DNA of 4,153 bases. Origin: Escherichia coli. GTDB lineage: Bacteria > Pseudomonadota > Gammaproteobacteria > Enterobacterales > Enterobacteriaceae. Of the stretch, positions 299-3,875 are shown piece by piece. The translations under genes were made by a program, and so were the position numbers. The first letter of the stretch is position 1. The number at the start of each line of letters is the position of its first letter. The stretch lies in NCBI RefSeq assembly GCF_003334255.1, contig NZ_QOWU01000111.1; one strand, 5' to 3'. The notes under the pieces were generated by a model. It ran no database searches. It was not told the origin of the DNA and worked only from the letters and a program-made list of their open reading frames with translations.

Positions 299-655
299 GT
301 GTTGATTGAGTGTTTGTTATACGGTCTAATGGTTTTTTCAGCATTAAATATTTATCATTCATATGGTGTGGGTAGAGTGAATATTGATGAGGCGTCGGGG
401 TGTTTCATCCTTAGGCAGCGTATTGATATAGTCAATGCAGAACGAGCAAAGGCCTTCAGCCGTTTGACAGTTTTGTTCTGTACTCCTGATCGTCTTTCGG
501 GAAGAGACGTTATTATTCTGAATAGTGATGCTATACAGAGGGTTTGCGATGAGTTCATGGTGGCTAATTCAGAATTATTTGCTCTTGTTCAGGAGTACAA
601 CAGAATAGCCAGGACCTGTGGTATGGATGAACTTCGGATTACTCATCTGGGGTAG
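299..655 (+). CDS. hypothetical protein (118 codons as drawn; true start uncertain, candidates GTG299, ATG329, GTG377)
   Basis: Open frame from the six-frame track ending at TAG 653-655. No convincing Shine-Dalgarno in front of any candidate start. 6 of 11 Arg codons are AGA/AGG (3 AGA, 3 AGG), directly beside a tRNA-Arg(TCT). AT-rich promoter-like stretch 250-298 upstream. No domain recognised by eye. Confidence 0.3.
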   Translation: MLIECLLYGLMVFSALNIYHSYGVGRVNIDEASGCFILRQRIDIVNAERAKAFSRLTVLFCTPDRLSGRDVIILNSDAIQRVCDEFMVANSELFALVQEYNRIARTCGMDELRITHLG

Positions 656-735
656 ATACATATCTGGATTATCACCGGTTACGGTAAAAAGTGATTGCTT
701 ACTGTTTTTGTGAATGGCATTGCAGCAGCCGGATA

Positions 736-822
736 ATGTCAGTGCTGGCTGACGGTGTGCTGGTGGCGGGTGTGGTGGTTGCTGCTTTCCCGTTGCTGAA
801 AAAGAAAACGCCAGACTGTTAG
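736..822 (+). CDS. candidate small hydrophobic peptide, 28 aa (MSVLADGVLVAGVVVAAFPLLKKKTPDC); frame is open back to GTG691, which would give 43 aa
   Basis: ATG 736, TAG 820-822. One uninterrupted hydrophobic stretch of about 17 residues followed by KKK, typical of small single-pass membrane peptides (type I toxin-like or leader-like). GC-rich, E. coli-like codon choice. Only a weak SD (GGAT/CCGGA) upstream. Below the ORF-track length cut-off, so found by reading. Confidence 0.2.
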   Translation: MSVLADGVLVAGVVVAAFPLLKKKTPDC

Positions 823-1047
823 CCGGGTATCAGTTAGCGGGAGAAATTTTTAAATACTTCACAATTCAGGCGGTTGACTGTTGTCTGGTTTGCGGGGAGT
901 TTGTTAAAAGAAACTGGCATGGTGAATCCCCCTGTGCGGAGGGGCAATCAGCGAGTAGGTATATGGGATAATCGCGGATTCAGGTGCTGGTACTGAATTC
1001 ACCGGGAGGCACCCGGCACCATGCAATGGCACATAGCGCCACTCTCC

Positions 1048-1083
1048 AGCCCCTCTCCGGAGGGGCTGTTTATATTGATTTTG
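1048..1083 (+). terminator. Rho-independent terminator candidate, plus-strand orientation
   Basis: Perfect 8-bp GC-rich stem AGCCCCTC (1048-1055) / GAGGGGCT (1060-1067) with 4-nt loop TCCG, followed by GTTTATATTGATTTTG. On the minus strand the same hairpin is followed by GGAGAGTGG (no U tract), so it looks unidirectional. Confidence 0.5.
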
Positions 1084-1683: not shown

Positions 1684-1887
1684 ATGGTGGAAAGAACCAT
1701 GGCATTTAAACACTATGATGTTGTCAGGGCGGCGTCGCCGTCAGATCTTGCGGAAAAGCTGACACATAAACTGAAAGAGGGCTGGCAGCCGTTTGGTAGT
1801 CCGGTGGCCATAACCCCTTATACCCTGATGCAGGCGATTGCAGCAGAAGGTGATGTGGTGGTCAGTGGTGCAACTGAGCCGGAGTGA
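1684..1887 (+). CDS. DUF1737-like small phage protein (67 aa from ATG1684; alternative start ATG1699 preceded by GGTGGAAAG)
   Basis: Sequence MAFKHYDVVRAASPSDLAEKL...GWQPFGSPV resembles, from memory, the DUF1737 domain that occurs as small standalone prophage proteins and as the N-terminus of nanS-p-type esterases found between Q/stx and S in lambdoid prophages. Stop TGA 1885-1887. Confidence 0.6.
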   Translation: MVERTMAFKHYDVVRAASPSDLAEKLTHKLKEGWQPFGSPVAITPYTLMQAIAAEGDVVVSGATEPE

Positions 1888-2042
1888 TACTACGTCATCG
1901 TACTGGCCCGGCATTCCAGGCCATAAAAGACGGTCTGGCAGTGGGACTAAATGCACTGACGCTGACGGATATTACCAAAAATGCAACGTATGGCGTTGAG
2001 ATAGAAAGTCTGGTGCTGGAGATAAATGCACCGGCATCATCA
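1878..2042 (+). pseudogene. possible 3' remnant of a larger gene (frame shifted relative to the DUF1737 ORF)
   Basis: A different frame is open from 1878 to TAA 2040-2042 and translates to a protein-like tail (...[50 protein letters not shown]) with no ATG start (only GTG1884). Together with the upstream DUF1737 ORF this looks like an internally deleted multi-domain gene. Could alternatively be a small overlapping ORF or chance. Confidence 0.3.
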
Positions 2043-2130
2043 TAAAAAGTGAGCCAGTCAAATGGAAGGTATCGTTAAACTCACCGGTAGTGTCAGTGGG
2101 TCGTCTGAGACGCCTGCATGAGTTATCAGA

Positions 2131-2194: not shown

Positions 2195-2410
2195 ATGTAC
2201 CAGATGGAAAAAATCACAACAGGTGTGTCATACACCACGTCAGCGGTGGGAACGGGCTACTGGTTCCTGCAGTTGCTGGACAGGGTTTCCCCGTCTCAGT
2301 GGGCGGCAATAGGCGTGCTGGGGAGTCTGCTGTTTGGGCTGCTGACATATCTGACTAACCTGTATTTCAAAATCAAAGAGGACCGGCGTAAGGCGGCGCG
2401 GGGAGAGTAA
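2195..2410 (+). CDS. S: class II holin (phage 21 S21-like pinholin), 71 aa, probable dual start Met1/Met4
   Basis: Protein [71 protein letters not shown] is near-identical in the C-terminal two thirds to phage 21 S as I recall it. Two TMDs (a Gly/Ala/Ser/Thr-rich TMD1 and a hydrophobic TMD2) with a charged C-tail. SD GGAGA before ATG2195, second in-frame ATG at 2204. The ORF-track entry 2090..2410 is the same frame, but its extension runs through the terminator hairpin. Confidence 0.9.
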
Positions 2411-2414
2411 AGTG

Positions 2415-3305
2415 ATGAATAAAAAATATGAACTGGTTGTTAAGGGGATAAATAATTACGGGGATAAGGTTACTGTTACTGTGAAGCCGGAAGGTGACGG
2501 GCAAGCGTCGCTGTTGTTGCCAGATGTGGCGATTAGTCTTGACCGTACTGAAGGTGCCACGCTGGAGTTTTACGAAGCTGAGGCGAAAAAGCAGGCGAAG
2601 CAGTTTTTCATGGATGTTGCTGCCGGGTTATGTGAAGGGGATGGTCCGTTGCCGGAAAAGCGCCCCGTAATTTTAGAGGCGCAGGATGTGTTGATAACCT
2701 ACAAAGGAAAGCTACCGGGAAGAATTACTTGTTCTCTGAAGATGCCGCCGTCAACACTGCGGTCAGAAAAAGATGATGTTGAATCACGTATTGAAAAACT
2801 GGAGAGCTACGTCGTTGAGCTGAATAAGAAATGGTCGATATTGGTGCCTTCTGGCGATGAAAAGCAGTTTGCTGCGTTTGACGATTATTGTCGGAAAGTG
2901 ATGAGCAGAAATCTCGCAGAGTGTTTCAGTATTCATAATGATAATTTCAGTGACCCGGAATGGGAGTGTAACCGGCCATCCTTTGTTGTATCCGGTGATG
3001 CTGGGAAAATAACCATCTCAGAAAATGGGAAAGTAACACCTCCATCGCACCAGCACAGTGAGGAGCTCATTGAATTTGCCATTGATTACCTGAAGAACAA
3101 TAAAAAGCAGGGGCTGATGAAGCGCGTTGGCCGTTGCATGGGATATCTGCAGGTAGCTGCTGAGATTGAAGCGCTGGCCAGTGGTGCTGATAAGGATGCA
3201 ATTGTGCGGGAGGCTCTTCTTCGTGATTTTAATACTCCACCCTTTAAAAAAGTGCCGGCTTACTGGCTTCATCCGGGGCTGACTTATCTTAAAGTGCGTA
3301 TTTAG
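2415..3305 (+). CDS. hypothetical protein, 296 aa, inserted between holin and endolysin (function unknown)
   Basis: Long clean ORF with ATG at 2415 (GTG at 2412 also in frame). SD GGGAGAG at 2401-2407 sits 7 nt upstream and overlaps the last codons of S, whose TAA stop (2408-2410) lies between SD and start, i.e. translational coupling. No signal peptide or TM segment and no catalytic motif recognisable by eye. Stop TAG 3303-3305. Confidence 0.7.
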   Translation: MNKKYELVVKGINNYGDKVTVTVKPEGDGQASLLLPDVAISLDRTEGATLEFYEAEAKKQAKQFFMDVAAGLCEGDGPLPEKRPVILEAQDVLITYKGKLPGRITCSLKMPPSTLRSEKDDVESRIEKLESYVVELNKKWSILVPSGDEKQFAAFDDYCRKVMSRNLAECFSIHNDNFSDPEWECNRPSFVVSGDAGKITISENGKVTPPSHQHSEELIEFAIDYLKNNKKQGLMKRVGRCMGYLQVAAEIEALASGADKDAIVREALLRDFNTPPFKKVPAYWLHPGLTYLKVRI

Positions 3306-3341
3306 TGGGCCAGGGACAGCGGCTGAATATTTAATATATCC

Positions 3342-3875
3342 ATGAACACCAAAATCAAATACGGCCTGTCGGCTGCCGTTCTGGCGCTGATTGCCGCTGG
3401 TGCGCCTGCGCCTGACATTCTCGACCAGTTTCTGGATGAAAAGGAAGGCAAGCACACCACAGCATACCGTGATGGTGCGGGTATCTGGACCATCTGCCGA
3501 GGTGCCATCATGGTGGATGGTAAGCCTGTGATTCCTGGCATGAAGCTGTCGAAGGAAAAATGCGACTGGGTTAACACTATCGAACGGGATAAGGCGCTGG
3601 CGTGGGTGGAGAAAAACATCAGAGTGCCACTGACCGAACCCCAGAAAGCGGGGATCGCGTCATTCTGTCCGTACAACATTGGTCCCGGTAAGTGTTTCCC
3701 GTCGACGTTTTACAGACGAATTAATGCTGGTGATCGAAAAGGTGCCTGCGAAGCGATTCGCTGGTGGATTAAGGACGGTGGCAGAGACTGCCGTATTCGT
3801 TCAAACAACTGTTACGGTCAAGTATCCCGTCGTGACCAGGAGAGCGCGCTGGCGTGCTGGGGTATCGACAGATAA
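3342..3875 (+). CDS. R: SAR endolysin (phage 21 R21-type lysozyme, T4-lysozyme fold), 177 aa
   Basis: N-terminal weakly hydrophobic Gly/Ala-rich signal-anchor-release segment (GLSAAVLALIAAGAPAP). Catalytic triad spacing E35-x8-D44-x5-T50 (EGKHTTAYRDGAGIWT) seen directly. Overall very close to lambdoid/Stx-phage R proteins as I recall them. No strong SD upstream (36-nt gap after the previous stop). Confidence 0.92.
   Translation: MNTKIKYGLSAAVLALIAAGAPAPDILDQFLDEKEGKHTTAYRDGAGIWTICRGAIMVDGKPVIPGMKLSKEKCDWVNTIERDKALAWVEKNIRVPLTEPQKAGIASFCPYNIGPGKCFPSTFYRRINAGDRKGACEAIRWWIKDGGRDCRIRSNNCYGQVSRRDQESALACWGIDR

Follow-up and report, generated by a model that had tools for sequence, protein, structure and literature searches.

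A long two-domain form of the YdfR (DUF1327) family beside the holin gene of a lambdoid Escherichia coli prophage

Introduction

In the Qin prophage of Escherichia coli K-12 the gene ydfR (b1555) is located between essQ, which encodes a P21-type holin, and the lysozyme gene rrrQ. YdfR belongs to the family DUF1327 (PF07041). Here we describe a long relative of this gene in a 4,153-nucleotide stretch of E. coli DNA (contig NZ_QOWU01000111.1; hereafter the window), which is the late region of a lambdoid prophage. In the window an open reading frame (ORF) of 296 codons lies between a holin gene of the phage 21 type (S) and an endolysin gene of the signal-arrest-release (SAR) type (R). Judging by identity and architecture, this ORF is almost certainly an intact, selected late-operon gene that encodes a long YdfR (DUF1327) protein of two domains. 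An earlier note on this DNA had regarded it as a gene wedged between S and R; since K-12 Qin has the order essQ-ydfR-rrrQ, this is a known arrangement.

The likeness to K-12 extends to the details of the junction. As in the window, ydfR follows the stop codon of a P21-type holin gene after a gap of 4 nt and precedes an RrrQ-type lysozyme gene, and the two proteins share residues 1-74 at 47% identity. Unlike the window protein, K-12 YdfR comprises 103 aa with an unrelated short tail, and its gene overlaps rrrQ by 4 nt. The window protein adds a linker, a helical segment and a conserved C-terminal domain of 112 aa, all of which are absent from K-12 YdfR and from the Pfam model. Other long forms (for example P0022) combine a K-12-like N-domain with the C-terminus found in the window. 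The long form has already been clustered in a phage protein catalogue, as PHROG 1085, which has no assigned function, matches the window protein over its full length. Thus the family was catalogued and the S-ydfR-R order was known from K-12 Qin; what the present analysis adds is a definition of the long form with both of its domains, which is conserved as far as Salmonella, a description of the locus as modular and polymorphic, an annotation artefact and a testable lead towards RNase E.

Protein regulators of RNase E include RraA, RraB and RapZ of the host as well as Srd of phage T4, gp0.7 of T7 and Dip of phiKZ. All are small, bind the enzyme and change the decay of RNA, the phage proteins doing so during infection. 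A comparison with them can concern the way of working only, as no sequence or fold similarity of the window protein to RraA/RraB, RapZ, Srd, gp0.7 or Dip was found. Phage T4 also encodes RIII, a soluble cytoplasmic antiholin that is encoded with the lysis genes and acts on the holin T, which is unrelated to S21. This comparison, too, is one of a possible mode of action without homology, and binding of the window protein to a holin would be hypothetical. Functional literature on ydfR, DUF1327 and essQ/rrrQ was found for K-12 YdfR only, which binds the same N-terminal half of RNase E as RapZ (PMC13232886).

The family deserves attention since it is very common in E. coli, including Shiga toxin (Stx) phages, and sits inside one of the best-studied phage gene cassettes with its function unassigned. 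It is the long form that appears to be the gene in its complete version, rather than the 103-aa protein of K-12, and this form is the one conserved into Salmonella; the most conserved part of it is a C-terminal domain without a Pfam family.

Results and discussion

Identity and coding status of the 296-codon ORF

The ORF list gave the reading frame as 2412..3305 with a GTG start, corresponding to 297 aa. The in-frame ATG at 2415, which yields 296 aa, is the start common to all homologues, several of which have no in-frame GTG before it; in phage Stx2_95 the ATG is directly preceded by AGCG, again with no in-frame GTG. We therefore place the gene at 2415..3305 on the plus strand, with the stop codon TAG at 3303-3305, and regard the GTG at 2412 as an unlikely alternative start.

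The earlier note had called the gene unrecognised and its product devoid of known motifs. Neither description held. The N-terminal 100 residues matched Pfam DUF1327 (i-Evalue 6.5e-40, residues 1-100 against model positions 1-88 of 93). PHROG 1085 was matched from 1 to 296 of its 296-position profile (E 2.2e-188, 625.8 bits). Moreover, many complete E. coli genomes contain the identical DNA (100%) under the name 'YdfR family protein'. The assignment to YdfR/DUF1327 agrees in position (S-ORF-R order with a 4-nt gap, as in K-12) and departs in size, since the typical member is a single domain of about 100-115 aa and the window protein has an extra C-terminal domain. All eight PHROGs matching the protein carry the label 'unknown function'; the related PHROGs 406, 2091, 36381 and 26186 represent short, partial or fragment versions of the gene. 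NCBIfam contained no family for the protein. Pfam scans of all 53 relatives returned DUF1327 only, with 16 of the 53 matching individually, and searches of PDB sequences with the protein and with a profile of the 53 sequences gave nothing below E 0.2. A match to a well-characterised family, which the earlier note had named as an outcome that would undo its proposal, was thus not obtained.

Relatives of 268-329 aa have kept an intact frame at identities of 61-89%. In pairwise comparisons the ratio of nonsynonymous to synonymous substitution rates (dN/dS) was about 0.4 overall; the N-domain gave 0.5-0.72, the C-terminal 112 residues 0.21-0.28. The ORF is therefore confirmed as a coding gene between the holin and the SAR-type endolysin genes.

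The product is predicted to be soluble, as had been proposed. A transmembrane segment is not expected, because the maximum Kyte-Doolittle mean over 19 residues is 0.75, and no signal peptide was found in the 296 residues. Lysis would then be the sole exit of the protein from the cell. Together with the place of the gene in the late operon, near the stx and nanS-p positions of related phages, this would suit an effector directed at a eukaryotic host or at the surrounding community and released at lysis, like the Shiga toxin of the same operon. We consider such a role highly improbable, as no toxin-like or enzyme-like fold or motif was found, the strains listed showed no obvious pathotype restriction, and the one partner known for this family is an enzyme of the bacterial cytoplasm (PMC13232886).

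Domain architecture

Structure prediction with AlphaFold2 (AF2) from a shallow alignment of E. coli sequences was too poor to use, with a predicted local distance difference test (pLDDT) score of 53.5. After Salmonella orthologues and stand-alone DUF1327 proteins had been added to the alignment the mean pLDDT reached 75.4, and four regions could be distinguished. The N-terminal DUF1327 domain (residues 1-74; 2415..2636, plus strand) is predicted to consist of three beta-strands and one long helix (pLDDT 77-97 for residues 1-73) and is acidic, with an isoelectric point (pI) of 4.9; its delimitation rests on the Pfam match, the model and the identity to K-12 YdfR. It is followed by a basic linker (residues 75-119; 2637..2771, plus strand) that is predicted to be disordered (pLDDT below 50). 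The middle segment (residues 120-184; 2772..2966, plus strand) appears helical and coiled-coil-like in the model and the alignments, with helices at 122-143 and 149-170 (pLDDT 63-74). This segment is variable and carries optional insertions in the 329-aa forms.

The C-terminal domain (residues 185-296; 2967..3302, plus strand) stands out by the model, by its conservation and by dN/dS. It is predicted with a pLDDT of 86-97 as three short strands and four helices and is basic (pI 9.2). Conserved positions include H214, G239-R240, Q246, the motifs AAEIE and PPFK, W284, the PG pair P287-G288 and Y291. Purifying selection is stronger on this domain than on the N-domain. No Pfam family and no detectable fold relative were found for it. 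An internal duplication relating the N-domain to the start of the C-domain was considered and rejected (hhalign probability 0.2%).

Relatives in Salmonella and elsewhere

An exhaustive profile search of 1.84 billion representative proteins returned only 115 clusters at 50% identity; the family is therefore narrow. Among these clusters are proteins of Salmonella enterica prophages (245-338 aa, 27-31% identity) with the same layout of DUF1327-like N-domain, linker, coiled-coil-like helix and C-terminal domain. Annotated as hypothetical proteins (for example P0157, P0164, P0171, P0181, P0239 and P0263), they share with the window protein the two domains and, in the C-domain, the pattern GRxMGxLQxAAEIE ... 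DNPPFK ... W..PG..YLK.

Unlike the window gene, the Salmonella copies lie upstream of S, in the part of this late operon that runs from Q to the holin gene, and are not coupled to S. They end 96-660 nt upstream of a holin gene of either the P21 type (PF04971) or the HP1 type (PF16080), and the lysozymes that follow in these cassettes all have SAR-like N-termini. The conserved feature is therefore a place in the late operon beside the holin gene and not the position between S and R.

Two features of these loci may be added. In the Salmonella-type loci L014 (1089-1487) and L015 (3639-4004) the start of the orthologue overlaps the stop of a DUF4406/nucleoside 2-deoxyribosyltransferase-like gene (PHROG 355). 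In these loci a HicAB toxin-antitoxin pair also lies on the opposite strand between Q and the orthologue.

The family further includes stand-alone DUF1327 proteins of 72-76 aa, most of them on contigs too short for an informative context. One of 76 aa (locus L022, 1636-1866) lies just after a lambda tail I-like gene, away from lysis genes. The small N-domain is therefore not confined to lysis cassettes and also occurs as independent cargo elsewhere in phage genomes.

A polymorphic slot between S and R

The presence/absence polymorphism that the earlier note had asked about was found across the S-R junctions of E. coli, so that the gene is not universal in this type of cassette. In locus L008 the slot is empty: S and R are of the same class, and only 4 nt separate the S stop from the start of R. 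In the K-12 prophage DLP12 essD and rrrD are likewise directly adjacent. Qin, YYZ-2008 and L010 carry a short YdfR of 103-114 aa. Loci L009 and L005 carry a C-only gene of 185 or 213 aa, which consists of the helical and C-terminal modules and has its own start MNHEEMNQRF. Intermediates of 211 and 268 aa were also observed, besides the full forms of 296 aa (as in the window) and 329 aa and a frameshifted copy in L011. Phage Stx2_95, an Stx2a phage, has a full form. The short forms diverge from the long one at about position 2750 of the window, corresponding to residue 112, where similarity breaks off in L007 and L010.

N-module DNA was present in 3044 of 5426 complete E. coli genomes (56%) and C-module DNA in 786 (14%); the short forms of 103-114 aa were the commonest. 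We then surveyed the C-module in 80 IMG/VR contigs by a search with the C-domain alignment, which returned only close E. coli relatives. The 80 loci comprised 28 genes of 296 aa, 10 of 329 aa, 28 C-only genes and 14 disrupted copies. The holin WP_000284510.1 occurs in identical form in cassettes that lack the gene, that carry a short YdfR or that carry the 268-aa form; a cassette can thus contain this holin without the gene. We conclude that the gene is dispensable for the lysis machinery, being accessory and not a core lysis gene, and that the slot beside the holin gene is recombination-prone, its modules (N-domain, linker, helical middle and C-domain) being shuffled, lost or split.

Strong presence/absence and modular polymorphism at a single locus could point to cargo directed against host immunity (anti-defence) or against competing phages (superinfection exclusion), for which a variable late-operon slot would be a suitable place. 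The narrow taxonomic range, the relatively high dN/dS of the N-domain and the moron-like neighbours in the window (IraM-like and TciB-like ORFs, see below) would agree with this. Among the PADLOC defence models, however, only PbeC was matched (E 0.018, 11.3 bits), on the coiled-coil segment, which is not credible. The C-domain is under purifying and not diversifying selection. No promoter of its own was found for the gene, which is therefore probably silent in the lysogen, and this argues against exclusion. On balance we regard an anti-defence or exclusion role as quite unlikely.

The public annotation of the locus is affected by an artefact. In the long forms (L001, L011, L012 and L013) the Prokaryotic Genome Annotation Pipeline (PGAP) annotated only the first 336 nt and labelled them a pseudogene, 'YdfR family protein, incomplete, missing C-terminus'. 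The window-type ORF is uninterrupted beyond the end of this pseudogene, at about position 2750. Presumably the call arises from comparison with short reference proteins. Of the 12 genomes listed for the C-module search, 9 had no feature annotated on the C-domain DNA. Being unannotated or called as a pseudogene in RefSeq, the C-domain is therefore largely invisible to gene-based surveys.

Pseudogene calls on long forms, the predominance of short forms, and the truncated, split and frameshifted copies, including the 14 disrupted loci and L011, could suggest that the gene has lost its function and is decaying in cryptic prophages, or that it is selfish filler there. We think this very improbable. 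The pseudogene calls are presumably the artefact just described, the window ORF is intact and has identical copies in many genomes, and the gene is present in complete Stx2a phage genomes. In addition, the low dN/dS of the C-domain and the retention of both domains at 27-31% identity in Salmonella speak against decay.

Coupling to the holin gene and the spacer before the endolysin gene

The upstream neighbour (2195..2410, plus strand) encodes a class II holin of the phage 21 S type, as the earlier note had recognised. It comprises 71 aa with a dual start at Met1 and Met4, matches Pfam PF04971 'Bacteriophage P21 holin S' at 8e-33 as well as PHROG holin families, and is 80-82% identical to EssQ and EssD of K-12. 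On these grounds it passes as a phage 21 S-type protein; its behaviour as a pinholin is a prediction.

The last codons of this gene contain the Shine-Dalgarno-like sequence GGGGAGAG (2400..2407, plus strand; read from the sequence). Its GGAG thus lies inside the end of the holin gene, and the holin stop TAA (2408-2410) is placed between it and the ATG at 2415, leaving 4 nt from stop to start. This arrangement, which had been noted before, recurs with a gap of 3-4 nt in Qin, YYZ-2008, Stx2_95, PhiR5_1 and 66 of the 80 IMG/VR loci. A consensus scan, which is weak evidence, revealed no promoter-like site on the plus strand at 2195-2415, and no strong terminator was found by such a scan between the ORF and R; the gene thus lacks the flanking promoter and terminator of a moron. 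From these features of the sequence the 296-aa gene is predicted to be translated by coupling to the P21-type holin gene, because it has no promoter-like site of its own, its Shine-Dalgarno sequence lies inside S and the gap measures 4 nt. The Salmonella copies, placed between Q and the holin gene, likewise point to late expression.

Downstream, the gene at 3342..3875 (plus strand) encodes an endolysin of 177 aa of the SAR type, again in agreement with the earlier note. It contains Phage_lysozyme PF00959 (7.7e-23), is 88% identical to K-12 RrrQ and matches the structures of the phage 21 lysozyme (3hde/3hdf) and of RrrD (4zpu). Its Ala/Gly-rich hydrophobic N-terminus, YGLSAAVLALIAAGAPAP, is SAR-like, release from the membrane being a prediction, and the triad E-x8-D-x5-T can be read from the translation as E35...D44...T50.

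Between the ORF and R lies a spacer of 36 nt (3306..3341, plus strand). The spacer itself was correctly described in the earlier note; its interpretation as the scar of an insertion between two formerly adjacent genes was too simple. It is co-inherited with the C-terminal module: 65 of the 80 loci have a spacer of 36 nt and 14 one of 42 nt (79 together), and in the C-only locus L009 it is nearly identical. Moreover, the family is old: as two-domain orthologues of 27-31% identity occur upstream of the holin gene in Salmonella, the direction of the event, insertion or deletion, cannot be called.

This neighbourhood raises the question of a role in lysis timing. The protein might act as a cytoplasmic modulator of holin triggering that is made in a fixed ratio to the pinholin through coupling and delays or sharpens lysis. 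It would bind the charged cytoplasmic C-terminus of the holin or the pathway of the membrane-tethered SAR endolysin, in a manner resembling T4 RIII. The start of the E. coli gene 3-4 nt after the holin stop, the location of the Salmonella orthologue just upstream of a holin gene and the SAR-type lysozyme in every cassette read are consistent with this. Besides, an envelope-integrity screen (Paradis-Bleau 2014, as cited in PMC13232886) singled out the ydfR deletion of K-12; this phenotype could also be a polar effect on the downstream rrrQ. We nevertheless judge a timing function unlikely. The same holin protein occurs in prophages with no, a short or a long form, the holins found beside the orthologues belong to two unrelated families (PF04971 and PF16080), and searches for lysis functions yielded no PHROG 'lysis' family, no similarity to an antiholin and no transmembrane segment, Pfam giving DUF1327 only.

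A possible link to RNase E

The best explanation that we can offer as a whole is that of a dispensable late accessory protein, a long YdfR, which docks on RNase E. We consider it possible, though short of probable. It builds on the K-12 homologue. Residues 1-72 of K-12 YdfR were recovered in a bacterial two-hybrid screen with RNase E, and the full-length protein gave a signal with Rne 1-597 (PMC13232886). Furthermore, Rne 1-598 co-eluted with Strep-YdfR, and RNA co-purified (PMC13232886). By analogy, the window protein would be made in the cytoplasm late in infection, and its acidic N-terminal DUF1327 domain would attach to host RNase E at the catalytic half, which is what experiments showed for the K-12 homologue. 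The flexible linker and the coiled coil might present the basic C-domain to RNase E or to its RNA substrates, and RNA turnover would be altered while the long late transcript is expressed. Taken by itself, the docking mechanism is a doubtful proposition that rests on this analogy.

Several observations weigh against a link to RNase E. The data stem from a relative of 103 aa that is only 47% identical over 74 residues. In K-12 the interaction was not shown with purified components, and overexpression of ydfR changed few transcripts and left growth unaffected (PMC13232886). The C-module is about as common without the N-domain (28 C-only genes against 38 full forms among the 80 loci), so that whatever it does cannot require anchoring on RNase E. 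The gene invariably lies next to the holin gene, whether before or after it, and in the cassettes read it is always accompanied by a SAR-type lysozyme; this fits a lysis-timing role at least as well. Finally, database searches gave no sequence or fold relative that would provide a biochemical hint. Anti-defence cargo, a remnant and a released effector are nonetheless less likely than either RNase E docking or lysis timing.

Two more specific ideas may be formulated, which together we would still call unlikely. The long YdfR proteins could be bipartite RNase E adaptors that are anchored to the catalytic half by DUF1327, dimerise through the coiled coil and are made with the holin, the basic and hitherto undescribed C-domain redirecting or blocking RNA cleavage. 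RNA decay would then be reprogrammed in the last phase before lysis only. Alternatively, the C-module could be a regulator of the pinholin or the SAR endolysin to which the N-domain is an optional addition.

With a complete long form, a conserved C-domain and the RNase E link of the K-12 N-domain homologue at hand, the system is experimentally tractable. If either RNase E docking or lysis timing were true, the gene would represent a new regulatory layer in the late development of lambdoid and Stx phages; if neither were, it would be an ordinary accessory gene.

Surroundings in the window

Read from the left, the window contains first a tRNA-Arg gene and several small ORFs of accessory type, then an IraM-like gene (minus strand) and what remains of a DUF1737/nanS-p-type gene, and finally the holin gene, the 296-codon ORF and the lysozyme gene. 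A near-identical locus in strain Eco889 extends the picture on both sides, with the antiterminator gene Q and three tRNA genes upstream and Rz-like, terminase and portal genes downstream of the corresponding genes. Over the whole window 76 in-register mismatches to Eco889 were counted, and the first 20 positions listed all fall within 1-26. The upstream tRNAs of Eco889 are annotated as tRNA-Ile, tRNA-Arg and tRNA-Arg, and the window differs there at its start. The tRNA-Arg gene of the window (Arg-TCT, 115-191) was identified by ARAGORN and Rfam and is the only tRNA called. Positions 1-110 end in a tRNA-like 3' half, which may be a degenerate or rearranged tRNA.

An antisense ORF of 145 aa (3018-3455) within the lysis region had no PHROG match and was treated as spurious.

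Among the small ORFs, that at 299-655 (plus strand, 118 aa) matched PHROG 2873 (function not assigned; 1.7e-70) and has no PGAP annotation in the Eco889 locus. The 43-aa ORF at 691-822 (plus strand) matched PHROG 1470, 'TciB-like inhibition of cell division or resistance to colicin' (1.5e-11), and is named DUF3927 family protein by PGAP. At 888-1077 (plus strand) Rfam detected STnc100 (RF02076), a gammaproteobacterial small RNA (sRNA), with 132 bits against a gathering score of 47 and the full model covered; the match ends at a strong terminator-like hairpin (1047-1068). The moron region of the prophage between Q and S therefore includes an sRNA gene.

The stretch 1684-2045 (plus strand) holds a pair of short consecutive ORFs of 67 and 53 aa, which match the first 58 and the last 50 of the 634 positions of PHROG 143. 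The first of the two is DUF1737-like and was called a truncated pseudogene by PGAP. In related Stx phages a large nanS-p/yjhS esterase gene occupies this position, and the pair looks like an internal-deletion remnant of such a gene.

On the minus strand, the 111-aa ORF at 1103-1438 matched the NCBIfam anti-adapter IraM (PRK09919) at 162 bits, above the cut-off of 121, as well as PHROG 4407, and its counterpart in Eco889 is named IraM by PGAP. It lies in a stretch of low GC content (30-38%) and is a candidate moron acting on RpoS stability.

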